64,000 bases of DNA from Hyphomicrobiales bacterium (lineage in GTDB: Bacteria; Pseudomonadota; Alphaproteobacteria; Rhizobiales; JAJFHC01): NCBI GenBank assembly GCA_965227875.1, contig OZ245783.1, positions 4,769,929 through 4,833,928 on the forward strand. Direction: 5' to 3'. Position numbers and translations under genes: made by a program. Within the stretch, counting starts at the first letter, position 1. Each line of letters opens with the position of its first letter. Positions 11,011-45,004 of this stretch are shown piece by piece. The notes beneath the pieces are model-generated. The model was given only the letters and a program-made list of their open reading frames with translations. It was not told the DNA's origin and did not search any database.

Positions 11011-11026
11011 CTCGGGTAGCTAGGCC

Positions 11027-12523: not shown

Positions 12524-12526
12524 GAC

Positions 12527-12612: not shown

Positions 12613-12668
12613 GTGTTTTCTGCGGCCCTTCCAGCGGTCTTCACCGTGTCGCAGCCTTGAGGGATGGT

Positions 12669-14389: not shown

Positions 14390-14424
14390 CAGGTTCTAAC
14401 AATGAAGATGCGGGGGAGAGTGCC

Positions 14425-14444
14425 TCCCTTCCTCTCCGCCATTT
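14425..14444 (+). repeat. attR-like direct repeat TCCCTTCCTCTCCGCCATTT
   Basis: Exact copy of 8744-8763. It lies 36 nt from the integrase 5' end. Confidence 0.85.
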
Positions 14445-14640
14445 TCTTTCTATGCATCCAGGCTTCAGCCCTTCTGGCTTAATCGCCGCCGTGATAGTTC
14501 AGATCCGGCGTTCCACGAGCCTTCACGCCTTCAAAAGCGACTGCGCCAGAAGTGAACGCCCGCCGGAGATGGTCTCCGACGGGCGCCCGCCCCCGGCCCG
14601 CATGCACTTGGATCATCCGCTCAACCGGAACGGTACTCGC

Positions 14641-16002
14641 TCAGTAGGGCCGACGGATCGAGAGACGCTCGTAGTGCGTGGACCCCAGCATCCCGTTTTC
14701 CGGATACTCGCTGATGCGCACAGAGTCCGACTGGTTCCCGCCCAGCAACCTGATCTTTCCGTCGCTGGCGCCCGTCCAGAAACCCACATGGCCGCCGATG
14801 ACCGCGCCGCCGCTCGATCCCGAACGCCGCCGGAACACCGCGATGTCGCCTTCGCGGGGGTCCCCGGTGACATCCGTGCCCCAGCCGCTGTCGTGCCAGG
14901 ACATCGCCCACTTGTTGTCCGTCCCGTTGAGGCCGGCCTGCTCGACGCAGTAGTTGACGAATGACGAGCACCACGCGGTTTCGTCGGGATACGCGCCACC
15001 GTTCGTCGTCGCGTGGTACATGACGATTCGCGGGTTGTGCGCGCTGCCCGCGATTTCCCTGACGCCAAGCTTCATTTCCGCGTAGGCCACGTCTATGGGC
15101 CTGTCGTGGGTCGCCTCGATCGGGAAGCCGCCCGCCGACGGACGCAGGAACGCCCCATGCATGAAACCGTCGGCGACGCCGTCGCCCTCGAGGTCGACTT
15201 TCACCCAGTCCCCCGAACGCCCGATGGCCGAAACGATGGCCCCTTCCGGCAGACTCCCGCTGTCGGCATATTCGGTTCCTGGGCCCTTTCGGACCTTGAG
15301 GCCCGACCGCGCGGTGACCTCCATGAGGACGACCGTGGACGACAAGGTCTCCGGCGCCTCCCCGTCGAGGCGGAACTGCCCGAATTCGGCGAAGGCCGGG
15401 CTCACGATATTGCCGTCATAGGTGAACGCCCCGCCCGGCCAGGTCTTGTGAAGGTACTTCTGGAACACCGCCCAGCGGTCGGTCTTCAGCATGTCCCGCG
15501 TGCCCGACCATCCGGTCGCACCGGCGAGCCACGCAAGGTCGACGAGTTCCTTCTTCATCATGACTGTCGCGACCGTGCCCGAACCGTAGATCCCGACCCG
15601 GTAGTCGTTTCCAAGTGCGGCACGGACCTCCTCGAAATAAGGCACGATCCTGTCCAGCTCGCTCTGGCGGAAGTAGTCGTGGTCGACCGCGAAGTAGATG
15701 GCCGAGCCTTCCGGCTGCTCCAGTCCGCGCGCCAGTTGAAGCGCCCTCTTCGCGTCCGCCCTGCCGCTCTGCGCGTCGAGGTCGTCGATGTGTCCACCCG
15801 CCCCGCCGCGCTGCTGGAACACCACCGCGATGGCGAGGTTCGCCGCGGTGAGGGCCGCCGCCTCCTCCGGCTCGAGACGCTTGGTCGGCAAGTTGTTGCT
15901 GTTGCGGTGATTGTAGTAGCGGATGACCGTCTTGACCCCGCGTGCAGCAATGTCGTCCGCGTTGTCGGCTATGTTCATGGGAACGTCGATTGCGTCATAC
16001 AT
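14641..16002 (-). CDS. Multidomain peptidoglycan hydrolase: DUF1906 (GH25-like) + SH3 + TIGR02594/CHAP-like
   Basis: 'GVKTVIRYY...AIYFAVDHDY...YRVGIYGSG' (DUF1906/Rv2525c-like). 'GLKVRKGPGTEYADSGSLPEGAIVSAIGRSGDWVKV' (SH3b). 'DETAWCSSFVNYCV...GDIAVFRR...GHVGFW...LLGGNQSDSV' (TIGR02594 NlpC/P60-CHAP-like). No signal peptide. Confidence 0.85.
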   Translation of the reverse strand: MYDAIDVPMNIADNADDIAARGVKTVIRYYNHRNSNNLPTKRLEPEEAAALTAANLAIAVVFQQRGGAGGHIDDLDAQSGRADAKRALQLARGLEQPEGSAIYFAVDHDYFRQSELDRIVPYFEEVRAALGNDYRVGIYGSGTVATVMMKKELVDLAWLAGATGWSGTRDMLKTDRWAVFQKYLHKTWPGGAFTYDGNIVSPAFAEFGQFRLDGEAPETLSSTVVLMEVTARSGLKVRKGPGTEYADSGSLPEGAIVSAIGRSGDWVKVDLEGDGVADGFMHGAFLRPSAGGFPIEATHDRPIDVAYAEMKLGVREIAGSAHNPRIVMYHATTNGGAYPDETAWCSSFVNYCVEQAGLNGTDNKWAMSWHDSGWGTDVTGDPREGDIAVFRRRSGSSGGAVIGGHVGFWTGASDGKIRLLGGNQSDSVRISEYPENGMLGSTHYERLSIRRPY

Positions 16003-19893: not shown

Positions 19894-21003
19894 ATGTCCT
19901 ATTTTGGCGCAATGCACGGGATGCACGGCATGCATGGGATGCACGGCATGCATGGAATGCACGGCATGCACGGGATGCATGGCATGCACGGAATGCAGTC
20001 TTCAGGCGGCGGCTCCGGGTCGCTCCTCGGCCTGCAGTCGAGTGCCCAGGCCATCGTCCAGGTTGCCAAGGACGAATACCTCGCAGACAGCTTTCTCGGG
20101 ATCCACGACTCCGGCGCGGCACCGGTCAGCCGCTGGGAACCGTATGTCCGGCAGATGCTATATCAGGTCGAGTTCCTGAACCGCTACCGGTGCGAAGCCG
20201 GAACCGACGGCGAAAATGGGGTCTCCGGCGTCTCGGTTTCCTGGGCCGGCGAACAATTGCTTTCCCTCGGCAATCCGCCCGAGGCCACATTCATCGCCCA
20301 GCTCGGCAAGACGGCCGCGGAGGCCAGCCAGCGGGTTCAGCGCTACGACGAGATCATCTCGCAGGCAGGCGCGTTTCCCGATTATTTCGGCATGCTTCTT
20401 TCCCTGACCATGCCGCAGTTCACCCACACGTTCGAACTCATCCAGACTGTACACGTCCTGGCCGGCTACGCGTCCATGCCGCCCAAGCACCTGCTCGCGT
20501 GCCGGCGGCCGAGCGAGATCGACGGCCGCCTGATGACCCTGCTGCCCAATCCCGGCCACGGCAGCTTTCCGAGCGGACATGCGACGCAGGCGACGGCGGT
20601 CGCCACCGTACTCGATCACCTGCTCGACGTTGTCGCAGAGCACTACCCCGACACGGAAAACAGAAAGCGGCTGATGAGGAAGCAGGCGCGGAGGATCGCC
20701 ACCAACAGGACGGTCGCCGGAATCCATTTCCCGATCGACCACACGGCCGGCGAACTTCTCGGCAAGCGGGTCGGTATCATGCTGCTGAGGGCATGCGGGG
20801 TGGCTGCGGCGGACACGCCTGTGAAACGAGCGACCTATACCGCGTACAGTGGCGACGCCTACGCCCAGTCGGTGAATGAGCCCATCGAGAAGGCCACCGG
20901 TGTCTCCGAAGACGACGAAGAAATCGCATCCACGGACCGGATCGAGGTGTTCGAGTGGCTGTGGTCGAAGTCGGTCGATGAATTCATCCGCAGAGCGGCA
21001 TGA
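19894..21003 (+). CDS. PAP2 / vanadium-haloperoxidase-like protein with N-terminal (Met-His-Gly)x9 repeat
   Basis: GGGAGGA lies 6 nt upstream. N-terminus is 'MSYFGA(MHG)9MQSSGGGSGS'. PAP2 tripartite motif is 'CRRPSE' ... 'FPSGHAT' ... 'NRTVAGIHFPID'. No TM segments or signal peptide. Confidence 0.75.
   Translation: MSYFGAMHGMHGMHGMHGMHGMHGMHGMHGMHGMQSSGGGSGSLLGLQSSAQAIVQVAKDEYLADSFLGIHDSGAAPVSRWEPYVRQMLYQVEFLNRYRCEAGTDGENGVSGVSVSWAGEQLLSLGNPPEATFIAQLGKTAAEASQRVQRYDEIISQAGAFPDYFGMLLSLTMPQFTHTFELIQTVHVLAGYASMPPKHLLACRRPSEIDGRLMTLLPNPGHGSFPSGHATQATAVATVLDHLLDVVAEHYPDTENRKRLMRKQARRIATNRTVAGIHFPIDHTAGELLGKRVGIMLLRACGVAAADTPVKRATYTAYSGDAYAQSVNEPIEKATGVSEDDEEIASTDRIEVFEWLWSKSVDEFIRRAA
19912..19992 (+). 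repeat. 9-bp in-frame tandem repeat ATGCA(C/T)GG(N) x9
   Basis: Read directly. Units start at 19912, 19921, ... 19984. Variation is only at synonymous third positions. Confidence 0.95.
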
Positions 21004-23348
21004 CGATGGACGACATCGCGCCGATCACCGGGACATCGATCCCTCAGAAGAAACTCGGGCCCTATGAACGCTGGATGGCGGAATTCGGCAAGGACTACGA
21101 CCTGCCGCCCATGTCGCTGCAGCACCCGTCCTACCTCTCCGGGATTGCCCGTTTCTCCCGGGCCCAGCCCACACTCCCCGCTCCAAATGACATGGCGGAC
21201 ACCGCTGTCACCGTGGGAAGCATGGGATCGTGGCGCCCGACACTCTCGCCGGTGATGTGGCGGGGGCCGCAGGGTCGCGAGTTCCATTATTCGTTTCTTC
21301 CCATGCTCATGGAGGCAAGGACAGGGACAGAAGATCCGGCCGGGGTTTTCAATGCGCAGGTTTTCGAGTCGCTTGTCGCCAGTCTCCATGAGGACTACGA
21401 CGCGCACATCATGAGGCAGAAAGAAATTGCGGATTCGTCCGATCCTTTCCCGGAGTTACCGCCGGGCTACGAGGGGTTTCTGGAGGATTTTCTTAACGAG
21501 CCCCCGCCCGATTTCAGTTTCGGCTTCCCTCTCCAGGCCCGGTCGGTGAACGTGTCGCAGTCGCCAGACGCCCCTCGGACCGTCTCGCGGGCCACGAGAT
21601 CCCAGGCGGTCTTCAAAGACGACGCCTACAATCCGGAAAAGCCGCTCGTGATCGTCGCCGTGATCGACGATGCAATTCCGTTCGCGCACAAGGCCTTCAG
21701 ATGCAAGGGCAGCGGAAAGACGCGGATCGACTATTTCTGGAGCCAGTCGGCGGAGGCCGACGGCACGATGCTTTTCGGGCGAGAGTTGTCCGGCCGCGCC
21801 ATCGACGACCTCATCATGCAACAAGACGGCGACGAGGACGTCCTGTATCGGCGGGCCGGCGTCCTCGGCGGAAACGGCGGGCCGGTTTCCGCGCTTGCAG
21901 GCAACTTCTCCCACGGCGCCCATGTCGCCGGGCTTGCGGCCGGGGACTGGCCGGCCGACAGCGATGCCAATGTCCGGATCATCGCGGTCGACCTGCCCGT
22001 ATCGAGCAGTTGGGATACATCGGGCTTCGGCAAGGACATGTTCGTCCTCAGCGCCATGCACTATATTTTCGACCGTGCGGACAGGATCGCGGAAGCCTAC
22101 GGATCCGACACCCCTCCCCTGATCGTCAATCTCAGCTATGGCTATTCCGGCGGGCCGAAAGACGGGACCGGTCTCATCGAACTCGCGATGGGCGAGATGG
22201 TCCATCATCGCCGCAGCGTTGTCCGCGCCCCGACGGCCCTCGTCATGCCGAGCGGCAACATGTTTCTCGACCGGTTGCACGCCGTGGTCACCGAAAAGCA
22301 TATCGCGAAAGGCAAAACGGCGACGTTGCCCTGGCGGATCCTCCCCGATGACCGGACATCCAGCTTTCTCGAAATCTGGCTTCCGGCAGGTGTCGGGGCC
22401 GATGATTTCCGTCTTGTCGTCAATAGCCCGGACGGCACCAGGGTCATCGAGGAGACAGGAACTGTCGAGTTGCCACGGACCGTCGACATGGACGTCGACG
22501 GAAAGCGGGTCGGCCAGTTTTCCATCGACCAGCGCGACACCACGAACGCGGCCGCGCGCGACAGTGGCGTACAGCCACAGACACGCATCATGCTCGCCCT
22601 TGCCCCGACGGAAACCATGTGCCATCTGCCGGCCGCGCCTGCGGGCCTGTGGACGGTGGAAATCTCCTACGCGGATGGAGCCGAGGAAGGGAAACTGCAG
22701 GGCTACACCACGAACATCGTGGGTGAACGCGTCCCTGCGGATATCCGTTGCTGGATCCAGAGAGACGTCTCGTTCGGAACCAACGACATCGGCGCGAAGC
22801 AGAGCATTTTCGACGATCCGCTCAACACGCTCTACGACAGTCATGGACGCCCGCACGACACCGACTCGGTATGGCGGGACGACTTCCTGGTACGGCGCTT
22901 CGGCAGCATCAACGGAATGTCGACCCACCCCACGGTTCTGGTCGTCGGTGGCTACGTCCGCAACGAGTACCGTCCGGCACCCTACAGTTCCGCGGGCTTC
23001 CTGCGAAAGAACGAGGCCTCGGAGTGGGCCTGGCTGGCCGGCGACCAGGTCGACTGCGTGGCCCCGAGCGAGGAGTCATGGATCGACTTCGGGATTCCGT
23101 CCATCGGAACAAGGTCGGGAATGCATGCGCGCATGAATGGCACGAGCGTCGCAGCACCCCAGGTCAGCCGGCGTCTGGCCCTGTATTTTTCCGGGCAGGA
23201 CCAGGCCCGGATGTCGGACGGAGACTGGATCCGGGAGACCGGCAATTATGTCCGCAAGCTCGAGCCCGACCGGAAGAAGTACCAATCCGTTCATGGAACG
23301 ATAAAACAGAAGGACGAGGCCCTGATCGGCCAGGGCCTGATCGACTAG
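21000..23348 (+). CDS. Large intracellular subtilisin-family (S8) serine peptidase
   Basis: ATGA overlap with the upstream stop. Asp 'VAVIDDAIPFAH', His 'NFSHGAHVAGLAAG', Asn 'MPSGN', Ser 'MNGTSVAAPQVS'. No signal peptide. The ~220-aa N-terminal region is unknown. Confidence 0.85.
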   Translation: MTMDDIAPITGTSIPQKKLGPYERWMAEFGKDYDLPPMSLQHPSYLSGIARFSRAQPTLPAPNDMADTAVTVGSMGSWRPTLSPVMWRGPQGREFHYSFLPMLMEARTGTEDPAGVFNAQVFESLVASLHEDYDAHIMRQKEIADSSDPFPELPPGYEGFLEDFLNEPPPDFSFGFPLQARSVNVSQSPDAPRTVSRATRSQAVFKDDAYNPEKPLVIVAVIDDAIPFAHKAFRCKGSGKTRIDYFWSQSAEADGTMLFGRELSGRAIDDLIMQQDGDEDVLYRRAGVLGGNGGPVSALAGNFSHGAHVAGLAAGDWPADSDANVRIIAVDLPVSSSWDTSGFGKDMFVLSAMHYIFDRADRIAEAYGSDTPPLIVNLSYGYSGGPKDGTGLIELAMGEMVHHRRSVVRAPTALVMPSGNMFLDRLHAVVTEKHIAKGKTATLPWRILPDDRTSSFLEIWLPAGVGADDFRLVVNSPDGTRVIEETGTVELPRTVDMDVDGKRVGQFSIDQRDTTNAAARDSGVQPQTRIMLALAPTETMCHLPAAPAGLWTVEISYADGAEEGKLQGYTTNIVGERVPADIRCWIQRDVSFGTNDIGAKQSIFDDPLNTLYDSHGRPHDTDSVWRDDFLVRRFGSINGMSTHPTVLVVGGYVRNEYRPAPYSSAGFLRKNEASEWAWLAGDQVDCVAPSEESWIDFGIPSIGTRSGMHARMNGTSVAAPQVSRRLALYFSGQDQARMSDGDWIRETGNYVRKLEPDRKKYQSVHGTIKQKDEALIGQGLID

Positions 23349-26581: not shown

Positions 26582-26800
26582 ACCGGTTGCAAATTCCGGT
26601 AACCGCACAACCCACGTACATAGAAGCGTGCCAAAAATGTCACGGCACGCTCAAAATCCTTAGTCTCCTGAAAACTTCATGCCTTCAAACTGTTGCAGAT
26701 ATTCGGACAACTTTGCAGACTTCTGGCAGGGGGGTGCCGAGACTTCTTTGAAGTCGGCAACATCGGCTCGAGAATTGGGGGAACATTCGTGCTCGTCGTC

Positions 26801-28744
26801 ATGTCGTGGAAACGTGCCGCGTTTCTGCTCACAGCCGGATTGGGGCTTGGCATCACACCTGCTCTTTCCCAAGAGGTGCTGCTGAACGGTGTTTCCCTGG
26901 GAGGTCCGATTGTCGCCGGTCAGGTCGCGATTCCGGACAATGGGCTTCTCAAGATCGAGAATGGAGCCAGCATCACCAACAACGGCGTCACCGTAATCGA
27001 CGCTGTGGACGGCTCCACGATCAACATCGACAACCTGGGCACGATCAACTCAACGGCCGGTGACGGCGTCAATGTCCTCGGCTCGACCCTCGTCCAGAGC
27101 AACTCCGGTACCGTCACCGCGAGTTCTTCCGGGATTGCCGCGCACTACATTACCAATCTTGTCAACTCGGGCACCATTCTCGGCACGAATTTCAACGGGG
27201 TATACCTACAGCCCGGCGTTGGCGTCATAACAAGCATGACGAACACGGGAACGGTCGCAAGCACATTCGGATGGGGCATCAATGCGCCAACCATTACGAA
27301 CCTGGTAAACGCCGGCGTCGTATCCGGAAGCAGCCGCGGGATCAGTGCAGACCTCATCACCAATCTCGTCAACTCCGGCACGATCACGGGAACAAACGGC
27401 GAGGCTATCAACACCGCTAGCCTCGTGAGCCTCACCAACACAGGAAGGATTACCGGGCAGAACGGCAATGCGGTTTCCGCGACAACAATCACGAGTTTCA
27501 CAAATGCCGGTACCATCATCGGCAGCAGCGGCACGGCTATTCGTGAGTTTGGCGCTGCAGACACGGTCCTGACTCTTCTTCCCGGCTCGAACATACAGGG
27601 TCTGGTCGACCTCGGCGGAGGCGTAAACACAGTTGTCGTTGGAAATGGCCTGAGCACGGCCACGACCTTTGCCGCGGCTCCCGACATTATAAATTCGTCG
27701 GGCCAGCCTTTCGCGCTTGCCGGCACGACGTTACATGTCGTGGACCCGACAGGGTTTTCAATGACCGGCAGTCAGCTTGCCGACACGACTGGAGCAATTT
27801 CGGACGTTCTTGCAGGTCAATTCGGCGGCGGATCCAGTGGTTCGGTTCAGGTTGCGATGGGGGACGGCACTGGGTTTTTGGTGACGCCGGTTTCCGACAA
27901 CGGTTTGACCGCTCGCGCATGGGCCGAGGTTTTCGGCGGTTGGAAAGACAGGGCCGGCGATGGTGCGGACGTCGGCTCCACGAACATTTTCGGCGGCATT
28001 GTCGGCGGTATTGAAATGGCGCGCGCCGACGCAGGCCGCATAGGCGTTTTTGTCGGCGGATCTGCCGGTGAAGTCGAGGTGGACAACAACGCACAAGATA
28101 TCGATACGGAAACTGTGTTCGGTGGCCTTTACGCGAGTCATGACAACGGGGTGATACGCCTTGATGCTGCAGTGACCGTCGGGCTCGCCGATTACGACTC
28201 CGACCGTTTCGTGGCAAACAACACGGCCGGCGGCGGAATACAGGTAGCCCGTGCGGAGTATGACGGTGTTTTCGTGTCTCCGGAGCTTACTGTATCGACA
28301 TCAATGACGATGGGACCTGCCACACTAAGGCCGTCGCTCAGAGTCCGCTATGCGGGCCTCTGGCTGGACAGTTATTCCGAATCCGGCTCCTCGTCCAACC
28401 TCTCTGTCGACGACCGCGAGGTGCATATCCTTGAAGCCCGCGCTCAGGTTTCCCTGCCGATGACAGTTGCGAGCGGCGAAAACGGAACGCTGACAACCGA
28501 AATCAGGACAGGCATTGATGTTCGCACGAAAATCGGTTCCGATCGCGTCGATGCCGTTCTTGTCGGACAACAGCTGTCGTTCGACTCTGGTGGTGACGAC
28601 GAGGTGCTGACGGCGTTCATCTCCGCGGCGTTCGCTATGGCTTTTGCCGACGCACTGACCGTATCGGGAGCGCTCGAAGGTGGCTACGGCACCGACGAAA
28701 CCGCGCACGCAATCGCTCGCTTGAGAGCGACTGTCGATTTCTGA
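26801..28744 (+). CDS. Autotransporter (type Va) with beta-helical passenger and C-terminal beta-barrel
   Basis: Signal 'MSWKRAAFLLTAGLGLGITPALSQE'. Repeated '(I/L)TNLVNSGT(I)xG(T/S)' passenger motifs. The C-terminal ~280 aa have an alternating beta-strand pattern and end 'ARLRATVDF'. Confidence 0.85.
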   Translation: MSWKRAAFLLTAGLGLGITPALSQEVLLNGVSLGGPIVAGQVAIPDNGLLKIENGASITNNGVTVIDAVDGSTINIDNLGTINSTAGDGVNVLGSTLVQSNSGTVTASSSGIAAHYITNLVNSGTILGTNFNGVYLQPGVGVITSMTNTGTVASTFGWGINAPTITNLVNAGVVSGSSRGISADLITNLVNSGTITGTNGEAINTASLVSLTNTGRITGQNGNAVSATTITSFTNAGTIIGSSGTAIREFGAADTVLTLLPGSNIQGLVDLGGGVNTVVVGNGLSTATTFAAAPDIINSSGQPFALAGTTLHVVDPTGFSMTGSQLADTTGAISDVLAGQFGGGSSGSVQVAMGDGTGFLVTPVSDNGLTARAWAEVFGGWKDRAGDGADVGSTNIFGGIVGGIEMARADAGRIGVFVGGSAGEVEVDNNAQDIDTETVFGGLYASHDNGVIRLDAAVTVGLADYDSDRFVANNTAGGGIQVARAEYDGVFVSPELTVSTSMTMGPATLRPSLRVRYAGLWLDSYSESGSSSNLSVDDREVHILEARAQVSLPMTVASGENGTLTTEIRTGIDVRTKIGSDRVDAVLVGQQLSFDSGGDDEVLTAFISAAFAMAFADALTVSGALEGGYGTDETAHAIARLRATVDF

Positions 28745-28853: not shown

Positions 28854-28865
28854 TTGTATATACAA
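28854..28865. promoter_or_regulatory. HutC-type operator TTGTATATACAA
   Basis: Perfect 12-bp palindrome about 65 nt upstream of hutC. Identical to 43741-43752. Matches the TGTA-N-TACA core of GntR/HutC operators. Confidence 0.7.
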
Positions 28866-28931
28866 CCTAGCTGCAATGGTTTATAGCTTCTCTCCAGTGG
28901 AGCACGGTCAACCTGCGTGAGGCGTCACGAG

Positions 28932-29699
28932 ATGGACAATTCGCTGCCGAGATACCAGCAGGTTCAGCAGCATATCCGCGACCGCATCGCCGGCGGTGAG
29001 TGGGCCGTCGATCAACGCATTCCGTCCGAACACGAACTCGTCGCCGAACTCGGCGTGAGCCGCATGACCGTCAATCGCGCCGTGCGCGAACTCACCGACC
29101 AGGGAATCCTGCGCCGGGTTCAGGGTCTGGGGACCTTCGTCGCCGATCCCCGCCCCCAGGCCACCCTGCTCGAGATCCGCAACATCGCCGACGAGATCCG
29201 CGCACGCGGCGGCGATTATTCCTGTGAACTCGTTCGCCTCGGCGAGACGCCGGCCAACGACGACCAGGCGGCCCACATGAACCTCGCGCCCGGCGATGTC
29301 ATCTTCCACAGCCTGCTGGTGCATTGCGAGAACGGCGTCCCGATCCAGCTCGAGGACCGCCTCGTCAACCCGGCCGTGGGCCCGGACTATCTCGACGTCG
29401 ATTTTGCCGCCACCACACCCAACGAATACCTGATGAAGGTGGCCCCGCTCGCCAACGTGGAGCACATCGTGGACGCCGTCATGCCGGAAGCCGACACCCG
29501 CGAACTCCTGCGGATGCCCGAAGGCGAGCCCTGCCTGCTTCTGCATCGCCGCACCTGGGCTCTCGGCGCCGTCGCGTCGCTCGCCTGGCTGACGCACCCG
29601 TCCAGCCGGTATCGCCTGCGGGCCAGTTTTTCAGCCGAGGACGCCCGGCCCTACCAGCCCTTCCAGTCTCTCCCCAAAGGAGCTTTTTCCGCATCATGA
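28932..29699 (+). CDS. hutC: Histidine utilisation repressor (GntR/HutC family)
   Basis: '[67 protein letters not shown]' followed by a UTRA-like C-terminus. An alternative ATG is at 28917. Confidence 0.88.
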
Positions 29700-31390: not shown

Positions 31391-32185
31391 ATGCCCGTAA
31401 GCCAGCAGCAGATCGACGACTTCAACCGCGACGGCGCCGTCCTTCTCGAAGGTGTCTTCGCCGACTGGGTCGACGTGCTCGTCGACGGCATTGACTGGAA
31501 CATGGAAAACCCGTCCTGGCGCGAACGCACCTACCGTCCCGACGATGGCAGATCGCCTTTCTTCCAGGACTATTGCACCTGGGACAACAACCCGTTCTAT
31601 CGCCGTTTCGTCCGTGAGTCCCGTGCCGGCGAGATCGCGGCACGGCTCATGGGCTCGAAGACAGCGCGGATCTTCCACGACCATATTCTCGTGAAGGAAC
31701 CCGGCAACAGCGTGGTCACCCCCTGGCACCAGGACCAGCCTTATTATCTCGTGGAGGGTGACCAGAGCGTCAGCTTCTGGCTGCCGCTCGACCCGGTCCC
31801 CCGCGAGCGCACGATCGAATATGTCGCCGGCTCGCACAACTGGAACAAGTCGTTCCGCCCGATGCGTTTCGACGGCACGCCGCTTTTCCCCGACGACGAC
31901 AGCGAAGCGATGCCCGATGTCGACGCCCGACGAGACGACCTGGACATTGTCGGCTGGCCGGTCGAGCCCGGCGACGCCGTCGCCTTCAGTTTCCGCACGA
32001 TCCACGGCGCGCCGGCCAACCATTCCGACACCCGCCGCCGCGTGATCTCGACGCGCTGGGTCGGCGACGACGCCCGGTTCGTGAAGCGGCCGGGCACGAC
32101 GTCACCGGCATTCCCGGACCTCGAATACGAAGACGGCGCACCGTTCGGCGGCGCCGAGTTCCCCGTCATTTACCCCGCTGCCTGA
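31391..32185 (+). CDS. Phytanoyl-CoA dioxygenase (PhyH) family Fe(II)/2OG oxygenase
   Basis: 'QIDDFNRDGAVLLEGVF', 'TPWHQDQPYY', 'AVAFSFRTIHGAPAN' give an HxD...H facial-triad layout. Confidence 0.75.
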   Translation: MPVSQQQIDDFNRDGAVLLEGVFADWVDVLVDGIDWNMENPSWRERTYRPDDGRSPFFQDYCTWDNNPFYRRFVRESRAGEIAARLMGSKTARIFHDHILVKEPGNSVVTPWHQDQPYYLVEGDQSVSFWLPLDPVPRERTIEYVAGSHNWNKSFRPMRFDGTPLFPDDDSEAMPDVDARRDDLDIVGWPVEPGDAVAFSFRTIHGAPANHSDTRRRVISTRWVGDDARFVKRPGTTSPAFPDLEYEDGAPFGGAEFPVIYPAA

Positions 32186-36648: not shown

Positions 36649-38187
36649 ATGACCGGACCCCTGAAATTCGAACCGGGACACCTCTCACTCCGCGACGCGA
36701 GACGAATTCTGGAGGGCACGGCCTTCGACCTTGCCGACGGCTGGTCCGCGAATGTCGAACGCGGCCTGAGAACCGTTTCGGACGTGGTGAAATCCGGCAG
36801 GACGGTTTACGGCATAAACACGGGATTCGGCCTTCTGGCCCGCAAATCCATTCCGCTCGACCAGCTTCGCGACCTCCAGGTCCGGCTTGTGCGCAGCCAC
36901 CAGGCCGGCACCGGCGAACCGCTCGATGACGACACCGTCCGGCTCATCCTCGCCCTCAAGGCCAACTCGCTGGCGCGCGGACATTCCGGCGTGCGGCCGC
37001 TCATCGTGGAGCGACTGGTCGAGATGGCGCGCGTCGGTCTTCATCCCGTGATCCCGTCCAAGGGATCCGTCGGAGCGTCCGGCGACCTCGCCCCGCTGGC
37101 GCATCTCTCGGCGACGTTGATCGGGGAAGGACAGATCCGGTGCCGCGGAGAGCTCTTGCCCGCCGCCGACGCCCTCTCCCGCGCCGGTCTCGAACCGGTG
37201 CAGCTCGAAGCCAAGGAAGGGCTCGCACTCCTGAATGGAACGCAGGTGTCGACGGCGCTCGCACTGCGGGGCCTGTTCGGCGCGGAGGACGCCTTCTGCG
37301 GTGCGCTCGTGGCTGGAGCCATGTCGGTCGAAGCGATGAAGGGAAGCGACACGCCGTTCGATCCCCGCATTCACGACATCAGGGGCCACCGGGGCCAGAT
37401 CGACGTCGCCCGGGCGCTGCGCAGTCTCATGGCCGGCAGCAAGATCCGGGAGAGCCATGTTGACTGCGACCGCGTGCAGGACCCCTATTCGTTGCGCTGC
37501 CAGCCCCAGGTGATGGGCGCCTGTCTCGATCAGTTGCGCCAGGCAGCCTCGACGCTTCGCATCGAAGCCAACGCCGTGTCGGACAATCCGCTCGTCTTCC
37601 CCGACGAGGGCGAAATCCTTTCGGGCGGAAACTTCCATGCCGAACCGGTGGCCATGGCGGCGGACCAGATCGCCATCGCCCTGTGCGAGATCGGCGCCCT
37701 GTCTGAGCGGCGCATGGCGCTGCTCGTCGATCCGAACATGAGCGGACTGCCCGCGTTTCTCGTCCCCGAACCCGGCCTGAATTCCGGTTTCATGATCGCC
37801 CAGGTGACGGCGGCAGCCCTCGCCAGCGAGAACAAGACGATGGCCTTTCCCGCAAGCGTCGACAGCCTTCCGACGTCGGCCAACCAGGAAGACCACGTAT
37901 CCATGGCGACCCACGGCGCGCGAAGACTGAAGGTCATGGCCGTGAACACGGTCGGGATCGTCGCGATCGAGATGCTCGGCGCCGCCCAGGGCCTCGATTT
38001 CCACCGCCCGCTTGAAACGTCGGCCCAGCTCATGCCGGCCTGTCGCGCGATCCGTGATGCCGTCCCCGCGGTGGCGGACGACCGTGCGCTGTCGGACGAT
38101 ATCGAAAAGGCGCGCGTAATCATCGCCGGCCGCTCCGGCTTCCACCCCGTGGTCGAGGACCTGTTGCCCTCCGCGACGGAAGGGTGA
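36649..38187 (+). CDS. hutH: Histidine ammonia-lyase
   Basis: MIO-forming '[15 protein letters not shown]', 'YGINTGFG', 'NQEDHVSMA'. Confidence 0.95.
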
Positions 38188-38191
38188 AGCC

Positions 38192-40864
38192 CTAACGATA
38201 CCCGAGCGTCAGCCGATAGGGCGCGACGCTGCGCCCGCCCTTCCCGTCCGTCACGCGCAGGACATAGCGGCCGGGTTCGGCGATATCGACCGCGAGGGTC
38301 CCGTCCCCGCCGGGCGACTTGTCCGGAAGCCAGTTTCCGCCGCTCGCCCGATGCACACCCAGGTTGACGGCCATGCCCTGCGGCTGGCCCGCAATCGCGA
38401 TGGTCCAGCGTCCGGCTCTCGTCAGATTGGCGACGTAGAAGTCGGCATCCCCCTTGGGGAGGATCGTTCCGCTGATCTCGCCGTCAGGCGAAACGGGACT
38501 CGCGGACGCGGCCGAATTGTTCGGTTCGCGACGATCCGGGCTCGGCGTGTAGCGTGCGGCGAAACTGTAGGCGTCCGCGTTCCGGCCCGCCTTCGCGTCG
38601 GTCGCCCGAAGCACATACCGTCCGGGGCCCGGCAGATCGACGACCAGCCGCCCGTCTCCTTTCGGCGAACGGTCCGTGAACCAGTTGCCGCCCGATGCCG
38701 CATGAACGCCGTAGGCCATCTGAATGCCCGCCGGGGCTCTGATCGTTTCGATCGACCACTCGCCGTGGGTCGGCACGTCGATCGCGTAATAGTCCGCGTC
38801 GCCGGACGGCAGGATCGTCGCCGTCACCCTTGCATCCGGCCCGATCGACCGGGCCTGGGCGGCAGAACCATTGGGCTCGAAACCGTCGTCACTCGGCTTC
38901 CACGACAGGCCGACACGGTATTGTCCGGCGGACCGTCCGCCCTTGGTATCCGTGATGCGCAGGACGTATTCACCGGGCTCCGGAATGTCCACGACAAGTT
39001 TGCCGTCGTCCTTCGGAGACCGGTCCGACAGCCAATTGCCCCCCGCGGCGGGATGCACGCCGAAGGCCAGCGACATGCCGGCCGGCTGTGCCTGTCTCTC
39101 GATGGTCCACTCGCCGTGCCGGGGGAAGCGGACCTTGAAGAAGTCGGCGTCACCCGCCGGCAGGATGGCCCCGGTCAAGGTCTCGTCCGGCCCGACACTC
39201 GCGGCAGTGGCGGCCGACTGGTTCGGCTCGTGCATATCGCCGGTTTCGGCATAGGCCAGATCGAGCAGGTAGGGGTCGACGCTCCGCCCTCCGGCCCCGT
39301 CGATCACGCGAAGCACGTACCGGCCGGGTTCGGGCAGATCGACCACGAGCTTTCCATCCCCCTTCGGCGAGCGGTCCGCCAGCCAGTTCCCGCCACCGGA
39401 ATGGTGCACCCCGAACTGCAGCTTCATGCCGTCGGGACGGGCCCTGTCGGCGATCGTCCATTCGCCCTGGCGGGCAACGTCCACCTGATAGAAGTCCGCA
39501 TCCCCGCGAGGCAGGATCGTCCCAACGAGCGACCCGCTTGCCGGAGTCGCGGCGGCAGTCGCCGCAGCGGGGTTGGGTTCGCCGCGATCCGGACTTGGAC
39601 GGAAGACGGTTTCCAGCGAATAGGGCATCGCCGCCGCGGACTTGTCCGTTCGGGTCGCCCGCACGACAAAACGGCCCGGTGCCGGCAGATCGAACACCCA
39701 TTTGCCGTCGCTCCTGGCGGACTCGTCCTTGATCCAGTTCCCGCCCTGCGCCGGGTGCACCCCGACCTGCAGCGACGCACGACCGGGGTTCAGCACCTGC
39801 AGTTCACCATGCCTGCCGACTTCGATGCTGAAGAAATCGACGTCGCCTGTCTTGTCGAACACCGCATCGATCGTGCCCGATGGCGGCACCGGCGTTGCCA
39901 CGGCGGCGCTGTCGTTGGGTTCCTGTTCACCCGTCGAGCCGGCGGAGGGAAGCGCGCCCGTGGTACCTGCCGTGCTGCCCGACGGAAGCAGGGGCGTGGG
40001 GCTGCCCGGCAGTCCGGGTGCAAGAACGGCAGGCCCCGGAAGAACTGGCGCACCCTGGGATCCGGAACCGGCGGTACCCTGCCCGCTCGGAAGTTGACTG
40101 CCGCTGCCGTCGGCGGTTACGGCGGAACGCAGGGGGCATTCGAACTCGAAGCTCCAGCGCGTACCGGAGGTATTGCCGTCACAATTCGGAAACACGGTCA
40201 CCGAAGCGGTTCCGGCGCCCGCGGGGATGTCCAGTTCGAACGTTCCCGTGCCGCTCACACAGCCGGTGGACTTCGTGACCGTACCGACCGTGACGTCCAT
40301 CCGGTCCTTGATCCTGAGCATTCCCCATGAAAACCCGGCCTTGCCGACAAACCCGCCGAGGTCGACCGTCACACCGCCTCCCGCATCTCCTCCCTGCTCC
40401 ACCGCGGAATTGCATTCGGCGGTCCCGGCCTCGTCCTCTTCCGTCTTCACAAACCCGATTTCAAGGTCGAAACGACCGACCTTGATGCTTCTGGGTTCGG
40501 TAACGAACAGAGAGACAATCTCACTTTCGCCGTCGGGCGCCTCATCACGGATGGAGAATTCGAACACGATCTCTTGCGTCGCACCCGGTTCGAGCGAAAA
40601 CCGTCGCGGCTCCAGTGTCGTCATCTCGACATAGTGAAGCGGCAGTACGGGTACGATGTCATAATCCGGTATCGTCAGATTGGTGTCATTCCGTATTGTA
40701 ATCACAATTACGTTTTTACTGGACCCGATCTTGAACTGGTCGGAGTGCTGGCCACTCAGGCCCGGTTCGAAGGACTGCTGACTGAAAGCCGAAAAACAGA
40801 AAAAGAGCAGGAGCAGGATCGCGAACATGATCGTGCGAACCGTGAGGGCAGATGAAGTGTTCAT
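38192..40864 (-). CDS. Large exported protein: N-terminal CARDB/NEW3-like and Cys-rich domains, P/G/S linker, five PPC-type (pre-peptidase C-terminal-like) repeats
   Basis: ATG at 40864 overlaps the upstream stop (ATGA). Signal/TM 'TIMFAILLLLFFCFSAFSQQ'. Five repeats each carry 'EPNxSAAxA...GD(A/V)D(F/Y)(F/Y)...GxW...GGNW...PGRYVLR...Y'. Confidence 0.75.
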   Translation of the reverse strand: MNTSSALTVRTIMFAILLLLFFCFSAFSQQSFEPGLSGQHSDQFKIGSSKNVIVITIRNDTNLTIPDYDIVPVLPLHYVEMTTLEPRRFSLEPGATQEIVFEFSIRDEAPDGESEIVSLFVTEPRSIKVGRFDLEIGFVKTEEDEAGTAECNSAVEQGGDAGGGVTVDLGGFVGKAGFSWGMLRIKDRMDVTVGTVTKSTGCVSGTGTFELDIPAGAGTASVTVFPNCDGNTSGTRWSFEFECPLRSAVTADGSGSQLPSGQGTAGSGSQGAPVLPGPAVLAPGLPGSPTPLLPSGSTAGTTGALPSAGSTGEQEPNDSAAVATPVPPSGTIDAVFDKTGDVDFFSIEVGRHGELQVLNPGRASLQVGVHPAQGGNWIKDESARSDGKWVFDLPAPGRFVVRATRTDKSAAAMPYSLETVFRPSPDRGEPNPAAATAAATPASGSLVGTILPRGDADFYQVDVARQGEWTIADRARPDGMKLQFGVHHSGGGNWLADRSPKGDGKLVVDLPEPGRYVLRVIDGAGGRSVDPYLLDLAYAETGDMHEPNQSAATAASVGPDETLTGAILPAGDADFFKVRFPRHGEWTIERQAQPAGMSLAFGVHPAAGGNWLSDRSPKDDGKLVVDIPEPGEYVLRITDTKGGRSAGQYRVGLSWKPSDDGFEPNGSAAQARSIGPDARVTATILPSGDADYYAIDVPTHGEWSIETIRAPAGIQMAYGVHAASGGNWFTDRSPKGDGRLVVDLPGPGRYVLRATDAKAGRNADAYSFAARYTPSPDRREPNNSAASASPVSPDGEISGTILPKGDADFYVANLTRAGRWTIAIAGQPQGMAVNLGVHRASGGNWLPDKSPGGDGTLAVDIAEPGRYVLRVTDGKGGRSVAPYRLTLGYR
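38195..39922 (-). repeat. Five tandem ~342-351-bp coding repeats (111-117 aa each)
   Basis: Repeat starts are at protein residues 315, 429, 546, 663 and 780, counted from the translated ORF. The repeats have diverged and are not identical at DNA level. Confidence 0.85.
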
Positions 40865-42195
40865 TGTCCCTTGGCCTTCGTGCCGACGGCCGAACTCGTT
40901 TTCGGATCGCACAAGGATGCGCGGCGCCACTCGAAGAAGTTGTCGACGTAGGTCCCCAAGCCGGTTCCGTCGTTCGTCGGCTTGAGTTGGTCGAGCGCGA
41001 AGAATCCGTGCCGCATGAACGTGTTGTCGCGGCCCGTCGCTTTCGCGATGTACCAGACCACATGCTTCTGCAGCACACGTTTGAGAAACACCCTCCAGTT
41101 AAGCTGAACCCCTTTGCATGTTGAGACCTCCGCGAGCCTGTCGCGGTCGAGAATGAGTTCGGCAGGGTCGAGAACATCCCCCTCTCCCTTGTCCGCGGAG
41201 ATAACGATCTGGATGGTCTGGCCGGGTGTGAGATAAGTCGTGCCCCGCAGGGAGGAACTGAAACTGTGCCCGTTCATCGGCTCTACCAGAGGGTCGACAG
41301 GCGGTGCCAGCGCCCCTGACCAGCGCCAGTGCATGTGCACGCAATCAAAGGCATATTCGCGGCAGCCGGGGATGACCATCGTCCGCTGGCCATCATTGTC
41401 GAGCGCGGTATGGAGATTGTCGAAGTCGCCTGTCCGGCCGTCGATCTGGGCGAAAAACGATCTCTCTGATGCAAAGACCGGAGCGAGCCCCGCAGTCAGG
41501 AATGAGTTGACAGTATAGTCATAGTCGGAAGTTCCACCGATACCCACACTGCCATAATCGATCCGATAATAAGCGGTTACCGAGACATCATCGTCGGTGA
41601 CCGTCGGATCATCGGCTTCCCACCAGTAATGAACCAGTGGAATGAAACGATAACAGGTCCGAGCGAAAAACATGCTCGCAGCCATGCGCTGACCACCAGC
41701 GCAACGACTCTCCCCGTCACCGAACCGGTAAAGATAGGTGGCAATAAAAGTGCCACGTACGGAACCCTTCGTGAGCTTCTTTACAAAGCGCCACTCGATG
41801 GTCCGTCCGCCGTCTTTGATGACAGAGTCATGGTTTTGCGCCAGGTCGCTTGCGCAAAACTGGACGACCTCGGAGTCCCATTCGCCACCCGTGCGCTGGG
41901 CGACTACGAAATGCGGTACCCGCACCGCAGGCAGAAACAGCTTTCCTCCTGCCCGGATTTCGGTGAAGACGAGCCCCTTGGTGTTTTGCACTTCGTATCG
42001 TGCACTCCACGGCGCAGCGTTGACCGTACCGCTGCCCAAAACATACGGATCCTCGTCGGCACACGTCCTGGGCACATCGAACTTCGCCCTGATCGTACTG
42101 GCATCAGCCCCCGCGACATCGAGCATCGTCGCGACAATGACCAGGATGCCGCCAAAAGCTGACAAGAGCAAACAACACCTGACCAATGCATTCAT
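40861..42195 (-). CDS. Hypothetical 444-aa exported/membrane-anchored protein (unknown family)
   Basis: GGAGGA lies 7 nt upstream of the ATG at 42195. N-terminal hydrophobic segment 'MNALVRCCLLLSAFGGILVIVATML'. Motifs 'KGLVFTEI', 'GTSDYDYTV' and 'CVHMHWRW'. G+C is visibly lower than in the flanking hut genes. Confidence 0.65.
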   Translation of the reverse strand: MNALVRCCLLLSAFGGILVIVATMLDVAGADASTIRAKFDVPRTCADEDPYVLGSGTVNAAPWSARYEVQNTKGLVFTEIRAGGKLFLPAVRVPHFVVAQRTGGEWDSEVVQFCASDLAQNHDSVIKDGGRTIEWRFVKKLTKGSVRGTFIATYLYRFGDGESRCAGGQRMAASMFFARTCYRFIPLVHYWWEADDPTVTDDDVSVTAYYRIDYGSVGIGGTSDYDYTVNSFLTAGLAPVFASERSFFAQIDGRTGDFDNLHTALDNDGQRTMVIPGCREYAFDCVHMHWRWSGALAPPVDPLVEPMNGHSFSSSLRGTTYLTPGQTIQIVISADKGEGDVLDPAELILDRDRLAEVSTCKGVQLNWRVFLKRVLQKHVVWYIAKATGRDNTFMRHGFFALDQLKPTNDGTGLGTYVDNFFEWRRASLCDPKTSSAVGTKAKGQ

Positions 42196-42336
42196 GCGAC
42201 CGTCCTCCGTCGCCTCCTCAGGCGCCAGCCGCAATCCGGAATGGACAATGGTGTTTGACGATGGCCGGCGCCGACCATGATTGCCACCGTTAAGTATGAC
42301 TCCGTAGAAAAAGCGATTGCAAGCAGGAGAGCGGAA

Positions 42337-43716
42337 TCAGGATTGCAACAGTTTTTCCATCGTTCTCCGGAAACGATCGGCGATGCGGTCCTCATCCGCG
42401 TGCCGGCCGTCCGCGATCACCTGCCGTCCGCCGCAGACCACGTCGCGCACGGGGCTCGCCTGGCTGGCGAAAATCCAGGCATCCGCGAGTTGATCGCCGG
42501 TCCGCGCGGCGAAGGCCGGAAGGTCCGTGTCCACCGCAACGAGGTCGCAGGGCGAACCGATGGCGAGCGCCCCGCCTCCACGCCCCAGGGCCCTTGAACC
42601 GCCTTCGAGCGCGGAACGATAGAGGCTCGCACCTGTGGATTTCCCCTCACCGCCGCCCAGCACGTTGCGCTTGCGGTAAAGCAGCCGCTGACCGTACTCG
42701 TAGGTCCGCAATTCATCCGCGACGCTGACCGCGATATGGCTGTCCGAACCCACGCCCCACGCGCCATTCCGCTCCCGGTAGCGTACGGCCTGGAAGAAGC
42801 CGTCTCCGAGGTTCGCCTCGGTTGTCGGGCAAAGCCCGGCCACCGCGCCGCTGGCCGCGAGCCGGTCGGTTTCCGCGTCGTCCATGTGCGTGGCATGGAT
42901 CAGGCACCATGCATCGTCGACCGCGAAGTGATCGAACAGATAGTCCACGGGCCTGCGGCCGCACCAGGCCATGCAGTCGTCCACTTCCTTCGTCTGTTCC
43001 GCGATATGGATATGCACCCTGCCCTGCGGGTCCATCCCCCGGAACCCGACAAGCACCTCGTCGAGAAGATCTTTTGTCACCGCGCGTAGCGAATGCGGTG
43101 CGATGCCCACCCGCACTTGGGGATCGTCCGCGTGGCGGCTGCGCAAAGTGTCGACGATCGTGAGAAACTGGTCTGCATCATTGAGGAAGCGCCGCTGGCC
43201 TTCGACCGGAGCCTGGCCGCCGAAACCGCCGAACGCGTAGAGGACCGGAAGATGGGTGATCGCGATACCGGTCTGCCTGGCCGCTTCAATGACGCGGTCC
43301 GAGAGTTCCGTGAGGTTTTCGTACGGTTCCCCGTTGGGTCCGTGATGGACATAGTGGAACTCCCCGACGGCCGTGAAACCTGCCTTCAGCATGTCGATAT
43401 AGAGCTGGGCGGCGATTGCCTCCACATGTTCCGGCGTCAACTGTCCCAGAAAGCCGTACATGACCTTGCGCCAGGTCCAGAAACTGTCGTCGCTCGGACC
43501 GGACACTTCCGCCAGCCCCGCCATGGCCCGCTGAAACGCGTGGCTGTGCAGGTTCGGCATGCCGGGAAATACCGCACCGTGAAGACGGACGGCATCCGCG
43601 GGCGGGGTCTCGCCGGTCAGGATCTGCTCTATGCGGCCATCCGCACCGGCGGAGATCAGGACATCGTTCGCCCAGCCGGTTTCAAGCAGAGCCTGCGTGC
43701 AATAAAACGTAGCCAT
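42337..43716 (-). CDS. hutF: Formimidoylglutamate deiminase
   Basis: Amidohydrolase-superfamily 'PGMPNLHSHAFQRAMAG', 'HIHIAEQ', 'LIHATHM', 'GSDSH'. ATG at 43716. Confidence 0.88.
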   Translation of the reverse strand: MATFYCTQALLETGWANDVLISAGADGRIEQILTGETPPADAVRLHGAVFPGMPNLHSHAFQRAMAGLAEVSGPSDDSFWTWRKVMYGFLGQLTPEHVEAIAAQLYIDMLKAGFTAVGEFHYVHHGPNGEPYENLTELSDRVIEAARQTGIAITHLPVLYAFGGFGGQAPVEGQRRFLNDADQFLTIVDTLRSRHADDPQVRVGIAPHSLRAVTKDLLDEVLVGFRGMDPQGRVHIHIAEQTKEVDDCMAWCGRRPVDYLFDHFAVDDAWCLIHATHMDDAETDRLAASGAVAGLCPTTEANLGDGFFQAVRYRERNGAWGVGSDSHIAVSVADELRTYEYGQRLLYRKRNVLGGGEGKSTGASLYRSALEGGSRALGRGGGALAIGSPCDLVAVDTDLPAFAARTGDQLADAWIFASQASPVRDVVCGGRQVIADGRHADEDRIADRFRRTMEKLLQS

Positions 43717-43740
43717 GGAGCACTCCCCGCGATAATCTAA

Positions 43741-43752
43741 TTGTATATACAA
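43741..43752. promoter_or_regulatory. HutC-type operator TTGTATATACAA in the hutF/hutI divergent region
   Basis: Same perfect palindrome as 28854-28865. It is centred in the 58-bp gap between the divergent hutF and hutI starts. Confidence 0.75.
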
Positions 43753-43774
43753 GACGGAATACGGAGCGGTTGCA

Positions 43775-45004
43775 ATGGAATTCGGCGATTGGGACGGATT
43801 GTGGATACATGCGGGCCTCGCCACCATGCAGCCGGGCGAGAAAGCTTATGGCGCCGTCGAAAACGCAGCGATCGCGGTCAAGGACGGCCGCATCGCATGG
43901 CTGGGTGGGATGGACGAATTGCCCGCACCGTCCGGCGAACTCGCCGAGGAGGTCCATGATGTCGGAGGACGCTGGATCACGCCAGGTCTCATAGACTGCC
44001 ACACCCACGTCGTGTTCGGCGGCAACCGTGCGGCCGAGTTCGAAATGCGTCTCGAAGGCGCGACCTACGAGGAGATCTCGCGCGCCGGCGGGGGGATCCG
44101 CTCGACCGTGACGGCAACCCGTTCGGCCAGCGAGTTCGAACTGGTCGCTTCCGCCCTGCCCCGCGTCGACCACCTTCTCGCGGAAGGCGTCACCACGCTC
44201 GAGATCAAGTCCGGCTATGGCCTGGATGTCGAAACCGAATGCCGGATGCTTTCCGCCGCGCGGCAGATCGGTCAGGAACGGAATGTATCCGTCGTTACAA
44301 GTTTTCTCGGCGCCCACGCCCTGCCGCCGGAATACGAAGGCCGCGATGACGACTACATCGACTTCGTATGTGCCGAGGCCCTGCCCGAAGTGGCGAGGCT
44401 CGGCCTCGCGGACGCCGTGGACGGTTTCAGCGAGGGCATCGCCTTCACCCCCGAACAGATGTCACGGGTCTTCGACAAGGCCAGGGAACTCGGCCTGCCC
44501 GTCAAGCTTCACGCCGAGCAGCTCAGCGATCTCAAGGGTGCCGTCATGGCCGCTTCCTATAGTGCTCTCTCCGCCGATCATCTGGAGTATCTTGCCGAAG
44601 ACGGCGTCAGGGCGATGGCCGATGCCGGCACTGTGGCCGTTCTCCTGCCGGGCGCGTTCTATTTCCTTCGCGAAACGCAGTTGCCGCCTCTGGACCTGCT
44701 GCGCGAGCATGGTGTTCCCATCGCACTGGCGACGGACTGCAACCCGGGCAGTTCGCCTGTCACGTCGCTTCTGCTGACGCTCAACATGGCCTGCACCCTC
44801 TTCAGGATGACGCCCGAGGAGACCCTGACCGCCGTGACGCGCAATGCAGCCCGCGCGCTTGGCCTGGACGACAGGGGCGTACTGGCGCCGGGACTTCGTG
44901 CCGACTTCGCGGTCTGGAGCATCGAGCGCCCGGGGGAACTCTCCTACCGTGTCGGCTTCAATCCGCTCTACCAGACCGTCTTCGGCGGAAAGGTGCGGAA
45001 CTGA
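43775..45004 (+). CDS. hutI: Imidazolonepropionase
   Basis: '[19 protein letters not shown]', 'KLHAEQLS', '[10 protein letters not shown]'. Confidence 0.93.

Follow-up and report, generated by a model that had tools for sequence, protein, structure and literature searches.

A candidate exported two-protein module with a copper amine oxidase-like head at the hutF–hutH junction of a Hyphomicrobiales bacterium

Why does a cluster of histidine-utilisation (hut) genes carry two genes for exported proteins, here called A and B, between hutF and hutH, and what might these proteins do? We addressed this question in a window of 64 kb, meaning the whole stretch of contig OZ245783.1 that was analysed and to which all coordinates refer unless another contig is named. 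The answer that we favour, with about evenly balanced confidence, is that the pair encodes an exported head-and-scaffold module with a metal-dependent A, a B that serves as tether, and partner-matched alleles that recombine. The pair would then be a small accessory islet at the 3'-3' junction of hutF and hutH, standing outside histidine catabolism, and its products would form a two-protein extracytoplasmic module held in fixed proportion through an ATGA overlap of the two genes. A would be the functional head, a disulfide-rich beta-supersandwich with its own invariant His3/Asp/Glu site. B would be the scaffold, with a variable immunoglobulin (Ig)-like N-domain that docks A, probably together with a domain containing four cysteines (4-Cys domain), and with a linker and five domains of the PPC/collagen-binding type, probably stiffened by Ca2+, that attach the complex to an insoluble polymer or the envelope. 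The alleles of A and of the B N-domain would be swapped by homologous recombination between hutF and the region coding for the 4-Cys domain.

An accessory gene pair between hutF and hutH

Both genes are located on the minus strand. A starts with an ATG at 42195, 8 nt behind the Shine–Dalgarno (SD) sequence GGAGG (42208-42204), and stops at 40861, giving a protein of 444 aa; B extends from an ATG at 40864 to its stop at 38192 (890 aa), and the stop of A and the start of B share the ATGA (4-nt overlap). The gene hutF ends at 42337 on the same strand as A, leaving a spacer of 141 nt, and the TGA of hutH ends at 38187, 4 nt from the stop codon of B (38192-38194). The extent of the insert, the two protein lengths, the ATGA overlap and the gaps of 4 and 141 nt had already been given by a first-pass annotation made from the letters of the window, and all of them were reproduced here. 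Its assignment of a hut cluster around the pair could be confirmed as well, as the identities of hutH, hutF, hutI and hutG are supported by Pfam and by NCBIfam equivalogs. Orthologues of B were called independently at 889-890 aa. The insert and its flanks are as follows.

36649..38187, plus strand: hutH (histidine ammonia-lyase), right flank of the insert, convergent with B (Pfam, NCBIfam)
38192..40864, minus strand: gene B, exported modular protein (open reading frame (ORF), orthologues)
40861..42195, minus strand: gene A, exported Cys-rich all-beta protein of an undescribed family (ORF, AlphaFold2 model, Foldseek, ratio of nonsynonymous to synonymous divergence (dN/dS))
42337..43716, minus strand: hutF (formimidoylglutamate deiminase), left flank of the insert (Pfam, NCBIfam)

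Among the homologues of hutF, the window chromosome and two Logan contigs (L001 and L002) form a tight cluster, followed by a group that is 65-67% identical, and the nearest named homologues from Pelagibius, Kiloniellaceae and Rhodospirillaceae reach ~58-60%. L001 is 98% identical to the window throughout and L002 shows ~92% DNA identity to it, both with the same order hutF-A-B-hutH. In the 65-67% outgroup the whole hut locus is syntenic with the window, and the pair is missing from all four of its hut loci, so that among the hut loci compared it is present only in the window, L001 and L002. In three of the four (L092, L173 and L174/L175) hutF and hutH are convergent, 4-5 nt apart, with an empty junction. 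The fourth, L090, carries other cargo at this position (11472-13457), a short-chain dehydrogenase of 275 aa and an SBF-family transporter of 360 aa. As the pair is absent from the outgroup junctions, it would have entered a permissive 3'-3' junction after the narrow clade of the window split from its relatives, and the hutF/hutH junction appears to be a recurrent landing site. Neither direct nor inverted repeats were found at the insert boundaries, and no integrase or transposase is encoded inside the insert.

A and B are also adjacent elsewhere, namely in L003 (Psychromarinibacter sp. C21-152), L005 and L093, in addition to the window, L001 and L002; L004 has the pair too, with B cut short where the contig ends. 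The 4-nt overlap of the two genes recurs in L001, L002, L004 and L005. L003, L005 and L093 are non-hut loci, and in L003 and L005 transposase fragments flank the pair. Its absence from the four outgroup hut loci and its presence in these three non-hut loci bear out the view of the first-pass annotation that neither protein has an obvious role in histidine catabolism, and they support the pair as an accessory insert without membership in the hut pathway; a link to histidine catabolism is unlikely. No significant match to PADLOC or PHROG families was obtained for A or B, and we found no literature on this A–B pair.

A third gene is located 5' of A in L003 (8424-9773), L005 (1312-2661) and L093 (~3809-5095). 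It encodes a mostly helical protein of 449 aa with an RR-containing N-terminus (MGRRAFRRVLL...), the three proteins being 50-86% identical to each other and having no match in Pfam, PADLOC or PHROG. The third gene is absent from the window, L001, L002 and L004.

Regarding the expression of the pair, the operator consensus of HutC is TGTA-N2-TACA (PMC12977541). The sequence TTGTATATACAA, a perfect palindrome of this form, occurs exactly twice in the 64 kb (chance expectation 0.14), at 28854-28865 upstream of hutC and at 43741-43752 in the divergent hutF/hutI spacer, where the stretch 43700-43799 is 98% identical to L002. The spacer between hutF and A contains no HutC box and no terminator-like hairpin, and its predicted folding is no more stable than that of shuffled sequence. 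It is possible that transcription from the HutC-controlled hutF promoter reads through into A and B; a weak promoter-like element in the spacer, TTGCAA (42322-42317)-N18-CATACT (42298-42293) with 8/12 matches, counts against this. A similar weak element, TTGCAT-N18-CACACT, was read by eye in the spacer of L002.

42196..42336, minus strand: hutF–A spacer of 141 nt with a weak promoter-like element and an SD sequence, no terminator
43741..43752, no strand assigned: HutC-type operator TTGTATATACAA, the only candidate HutC control point upstream of hutF-A-B

Alleles exchanged between conserved flanks

The first-pass annotation had described large parts of the insert as A+T-rich and had taken this as a sign of horizontal acquisition. 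Across 40250-42250 the G+C content is indeed 0.55-0.60 compared to 0.65-0.69 in the flanks, and the block 40401-42350 with a G+C of 0.568 is tied for the lowest 1.95-kb stretch of the window (mean 0.630, standard deviation 0.025). The 3' 2 kb of B (38192-40250) have a G+C of 0.68 and are as rich as the hut genes. The G+C content at third codon positions (GC3) shows the same division, with deviant values for A (0.68) and B codons 1-150 (0.67), values of 0.77-0.85 for the hut genes, and host-like values for B residues 151-890 (0.73-0.81; residues 315-890 0.81). Thus the A+T-rich character holds for 40400-42350, comprising the spacer, A and B codons 1-150, and fails for the 3' 2 kb of B, the deviation being confined to a sub-block of 1.95 kb. 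Acquisition as an insert stands on the outgroup junctions; low G+C as a mark of the whole insert does not stand.

A comparison with L002 reveals what this sub-block is. Unless stated otherwise, percentages, synonymous divergence (dS) and block edges refer to the window against L002, and dS, the proportion of synonymous differences (pS) and dN/dS were calculated according to Nei–Gojobori for this pair. The DNA is 92-96% identical in two stretches, one between 49500 and the hutF stop and the other between ~40400 and the B terminus, and the identity drops to 45-70% in 42350-40400, with sharp edges. At the protein level A is only 52.5% identical compared to 89-96% for hutF, hutI, hutG and B. The hut genes show a dS of 0.26-0.30 and a dN/dS of 0.07-0.20, and B residues 151-890 diverge like them (dS 0.18-0.24, dN/dS 0.05-0.11). 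Synonymous sites are saturated in A (pS 0.73, dN/dS ~0.16) and in B residues 1-150 (pS 0.76, dN/dS not computable), giving a pS of 0.73-0.76 inside the block versus 0.16-0.24 in its flanks. A and the B N-domain were therefore exchanged together, the crossover on the B side lies exactly at the start of the ultra-conserved 4-Cys domain, and the spacer between hutF and A cannot be aligned between the two contigs.

40400..42350, minus strand: exchanged divergent allele block consisting of the spacer, A and B codons 1-150 (identity drop, pS, GC3)

The dN/dS values of ~0.16 for A and 0.05-0.11 for B residues 151-890 show that both are under purifying selection, and both ORFs are therefore real genes. 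A competing ORF of 659 aa on the plus strand (38351-40330) with an Arg/Gly/Pro-rich product was rejected, as the frame of B is backed by homologues and by purifying selection; we take it to be an antisense shadow of the G+C-rich repeats of B.

Since synonymous sites are saturated, the spacer is unalignable and purifying selection has continued, the low-G+C block is best read as an old, deeply divergent allele that was brought in by recombination and not as the scar of the original insertion. The alternative that the block diverged rapidly in place under positive selection, with no replacement, would fit its sharp borders and its identical position in both lineages, but saturation at pS 0.73-0.76 against 0.16-0.24 together with a dN/dS that is still ~0.16 is not what such selection predicts, the non-coding spacer is just as unalignable, and GC3 is unequal between the alleles. 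We give this alternative almost no credence. With its GC3 of 0.78 the L002 allele of A is host-like and the window allele is the foreign-looking one. Returning to allele replacement, the pattern in these two sampled alleles (window and L002) suggests balancing or diversifying selection acting on an exposed, partner-matched pair.

Architecture and putative function of A and B

The N-terminus of A shows a hydrophobic, signal-like segment, and the protein contains many conserved Cys residues. No match was found in Pfam, NCBIfam, PADLOC or PHROGs, nor among PDB sequences, either with phmmer or with a 34-sequence profile (E<=10). The family is rare, with 8 clusters in an index of 5.8 billion proteins; a profile scan of 1.84 billion representatives retrieved 351 proteins at E<=0.001, and at 50% identity the family amounts to ~350 clusters. 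In 34 members, down to ~20% identity, D224, E244, D259, H262, G277, C278, C285, H287, H289 and W381 are invariant, with the motif DNxH...PGCR...FDCxHMHWRW. Further near-invariant Cys residues would fit an oxidising compartment.

An AlphaFold2 model of A is all-beta, with a predicted template modelling score (pTM) of 0.74 and a predicted local distance difference test (pLDDT) of 66. Searching the PDB with this model using Foldseek, nearly all of the ~50 top matches were copper amine oxidases (CuAO), with E down to 4e-6 and a probability of ~1, from human, yeasts, E. coli, Arthrobacter, cattle and Aspergillus, and a CuAO was also the best match in the independent viral library BFVD. Using hhalign, the A family gave nothing against TynA alone; in the comparison with an alignment of 11 CuAO sequences taken from plasmid records, the only match was local, with A residues 61-95 aligned to TynA 356-399 at the start of the D4 domain (35 residues, E=0.0017). 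A forced global alignment of A and CuAOs was uninformative.

According to the model and the family alignment A has a CuAO-like fold yet would not be a CuAO. The precursor motif N-Y-D/E-Y of the topaquinone (TPQ) cofactor is not conserved: the window reads SDYDY (223-227), of which D224 alone is kept throughout the family, the Tyr positions being variable. The HxH of A (H287, H289) is invariant, but the third invariant His (H262) is located upstream of it, a downstream candidate, H396, is a Trp in P0004 and P0005, and hhalign cannot place the HxH of A on that of the CuAOs. The 34 family members have no match to Pfam Cu_amine_oxid even at E<=1, and A with its 444 aa is devoid of N2/N3 domains. 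With the TPQ motif unconserved, the third invariant His preceding HxH and N2/N3 missing, A is not considered a CuAO.

The same observations bear on the idea that A is a true, histaminase-like amine oxidase feeding or complementing the hut pathway, recruited into the locus, co-regulated by HutC and with B as its periplasmic partner. It is attractive because the top structural match of A is human diamine oxidase, a histaminase, because all strong matches are CuAOs, and because A follows hutF on the same strand after 141 nt with no terminator in between and with a HutC box at the hutF promoter. Lacking a conserved TPQ consensus, a family-level Pfam match, any PDB profile match, an alignable HxH, the distal third His and the room for N2/N3, and being part of a pair that four outgroup hut loci do not have and three non-hut loci do, A makes a very improbable histaminase. 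In the head-and-scaffold model A is most likely a metal-dependent enzyme, with copper as a plausible metal.

B begins with a signal peptide and can be divided into four parts behind it.

40415..40759, minus strand: B residues 36-150, variable Ig-like N-domain (orthologue alignments; saturated against L002)
40130..40414, minus strand: B residues 151-245, 4-Cys beta domain (near-invariance; dN/dS 0.05)
39926..40129, minus strand: B residues 246-313, Pro/Gly/Ser-rich flexible linker (sequence; pLDDT <30)
38195..39925, minus strand: B residues 314-890, five repeats of the PPC/collagen-binding type (351-nt period; repeat alignment)

The Ig-like N-domain occurs twice in L003, L005 and L093, and P0284 has a different domain in its place; the similarity of the N-domain to DUF11/CARDB was not significant (hhalign E=0.02, probability 2%). 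The following 4-Cys domain of 95 residues with the motif CNSAV..GGDxGGGVTVDLGGF...FECP is nearly invariant among proteins that are otherwise 45-49% identical; its matches to CUB/VesC-like jelly-rolls come from a low-confidence model and are tentative. A homologue search with B residues 1-300 retrieved two proteins only.

The multi-repeat nature of B noticed in the first-pass annotation could be specified as five tandem repeats with a period of 351 nt, each copy having 114-117 aa and all five (5/5) containing EPN and GDxDxY, which we take to be the Ca2+-chelating positions of the ColG/ColH structures. The window B matches the ColH collagen-binding domain 3jqw in the PDB with E=0.007. It stays below the Pfam PPC threshold and the B proteins of L001 and L002 show faint PPC matches, while the L003 orthologue, 35% identical over 890 aa, reaches 2e-17 and 64 bits versus a cutoff of 25.9. 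By these sequence matches the repeats belong to the PPC/collagen-binding-domain type. The repeats of the L003 orthologue (11145-14564) also score above the Pfam CopC threshold (5e-13), with GDYDHY replacing GDADFY; beside a CuAO-like partner this score is intriguing, but it may reflect only beta-sandwich similarity.

In distant homologues, mostly from soil metagenomes, the A-like domain is found inside proteins of 700-3200 aa, fused to DUF11, Big_7 arrays, cohesin, SLH, PG_binding_1/3 or OmpA, and in P0107 it is joined to BACON, PPC and HYR domains. The combination of a head with an Ig/repeat stalk, distributed over A and B, follows the same logic as these single-chain giants.

Such fusions also raise the possibility that the pair is a non-catalytic module of the surface or matrix (an adhesin, an S-layer-like protein or a receptor) in which A is a binding head whose His and acidic residues hold a structural metal or a ligand, with a diversity caused by phage or predator pressure. 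A-like domains do occur in giant proteins whose Ig arrays are combined with anchors of the SLH, cohesin and PG-binding kinds, the supersandwich is also known as a carbohydrate-binding domain, as in the GH94 matches of Foldseek, and exposed antigens or receptors typically show the deep allelic polymorphism seen here in A and the B N-domain. A set of three His, three acidic residues and two Cys, all invariant to ~20% identity, would be more usual for a catalytic or metal centre than for a binding surface, though, and no anchor signal was found in A or B. We therefore regard this explanation as unlikely, if one to be taken seriously.

Somewhat less probable still in our view is that A is a carbohydrate-active hydrolase or lyase with a galactose-mutarotase-like supersandwich, acting on an extracellular or envelope polysaccharide with the PPC array of B as the substrate arm. 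The supersandwich fold with a GH94 match among the CuAO matches, the aromatic HWRW motif together with the invariant D224, E244, D259 and W381, and the PG_binding and OmpA fusions of relatives would all be compatible with it, and binding to insoluble polymers is known in the literature for PPC domains of secreted enzymes (PMC3327674, PMC6168687). But CuAO matches are far more numerous and rank higher than glycosidase matches, and no member of the family carries a CAZy-type Pfam domain.

Within the head-and-scaffold model favoured here one could go a step further and propose that A and its family members make up a novel class of metallo-oxidases acting outside the cytoplasm, with a CuAO supersandwich without TPQ, a site formed by H262, H287 and H289 beside Cys278-Cys285, and activity only when docked on the cognate B through allele-specific recognition. 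We consider this bold version improbable. If it were true, docked A could, for example, oxidise or cross-link either B or a polymer bound to the PPC array, and the allele-specific recognition would account for the inheritance and exchange of A and the B N-domain as one cassette.

Several points weigh against the head-and-scaffold model as a whole. The TM-scores of A to CuAOs are only ~0.3 and its model is of medium quality (pLDDT 66), being worst at the conserved motif, where residues 277-303 have a pLDDT <50; the model of B residues 1-300 is also poor (pLDDT 52). The proposed contact of A and B is derived from co-inheritance in one pairwise comparison and from the analogy to domain fusions. 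Furthermore, neither a secretion system nor an anchor signal could be identified for A or B, and the two-gene form may be incomplete, as the third gene for the 449-aa protein is missing from the window. We regard the insertion, the anatomy, the fold, the conservation, the allele exchange, the purifying selection and the occurrence of the pair at other loci as shown, while the docking of A on B, metal catalysis by A, tethering through B and the cause of the polymorphism are what we infer.

Neighbouring features and comparison with known systems

The hut cluster starts with the hutC-type regulator and continues with the hutU ORF, a PhyH-family gene, a five-gene ATP-binding cassette (ABC) transporter and hutH; B, A and hutF come next, encoded by the other strand, with hutI-hutG divergent from hutF. 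The ORF at ~29.7-31.4 kb is likely hutU, judged by synteny with L090 and L092.

28917-29699 of the window: GntR/UTRA hutC-type regulator
31391-32185, plus strand: PhyH-family dioxygenase between hutU and the ABC transporter, also present in the hut cluster of L001 and L090 and absent from that of L092
45833-46915, plus strand: fusion of a FlK-type thioesterase and a DsbA-like domain directly after hutG, kept beside hutG in all related hut loci examined (L001, L002, L090, L092, L173 and L174)

Several exported proteins are encoded in the chromosome region upstream of the hut cluster, among them a protein of 782 aa with a weak C-terminal subtilase (S8) match (21000-23348, plus strand) and an autotransporter beta-domain protein of 683 aa (26693-28744, plus strand). 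The other lowest-G+C stretch of the window (~0.57) follows a tRNA-Ser(GCT) at 8670-8760 and encodes an AbiJ_NTD4-domain protein (8912-9757) and a phage-type tyrosine integrase with DUF6538 (12968-14389, minus strand). The region 8670-14389 resembles an integrative island linked to a tRNA gene, and its cargo may include a gene for abortive infection. Adjoining it, at 14641-16002 on the minus strand, is a gene for a protein of 453 aa with Rv2525c-like glycoside-hydrolase-like, SH3_3 and CHAP domains, likely a peptidoglycan hydrolase.

What seems new at this locus is an undescribed family, A, which combines a known fold with another kind of putative active site and has a PPC scaffold as its partner. 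The family is a concrete target for finding new extracytoplasmic chemistry, and the split A and B offer a tractable two-gene system for a domain that is elsewhere embedded in proteins as long as ~3,200 aa. The locus also provides a clean natural case of cassette exchange between conserved flanks, from which it can be learned for annotation that a low-G+C patch can mark a secondary allele replacement and not the boundaries of an insertion. For histidine metabolism the pair is probably of no relevance.

Compared to known systems, A is closest to the D4 domain of the CuAOs (Pfam Cu_amine_oxid; E. coli TynA, human diamine oxidase and Pichia lysyl oxidase), which is likewise an all-beta supersandwich of ~400 aa. 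This likeness is seen in the top structural matches in two libraries, in the HxH, in the extracytoplasmic location of A and locally in GPW...GLV..I...VPH of A versus W.F...G..L..V...VPY. In contrast to the CuAOs, the third invariant His of A is 25 residues upstream of HxH and not ~160 downstream, there is no family-level sequence match, no conserved TPQ Tyr motif and no N2/N3, and A has an extra invariant Cys pair, the PGCR/FDCxHMHWRW motif and a paired scaffold gene. B resembles PPC domains and the collagen-binding domains of clostridial ColG and ColH by its matches to 3jqw and, through its orthologue, to Pfam PPC, and by the shared tandem layout, but it has five copies and contains neither a protease nor any other catalytic domain that could be recognised; A, the candidate for catalysis, is encoded by a separate, translationally coupled gene. 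The giant surface proteins with A-like, DUF11 and Big_7 domains, some with SLH, cohesin or PG_binding, contain a homologous A-like domain (E 1e-10 to 1e-90), but they are single polypeptides without the 4-Cys domain and the B-type PPC repeats, and none has been characterised. Finally, like the hypervariable cassettes of surface antigens and receptors that are exchanged by homologous recombination, the locus shows a sharp-edged, saturated block between flanks of ~92% identity, with both alleles under purifying selection, but its cassette comprises one whole gene and one domain of the next.

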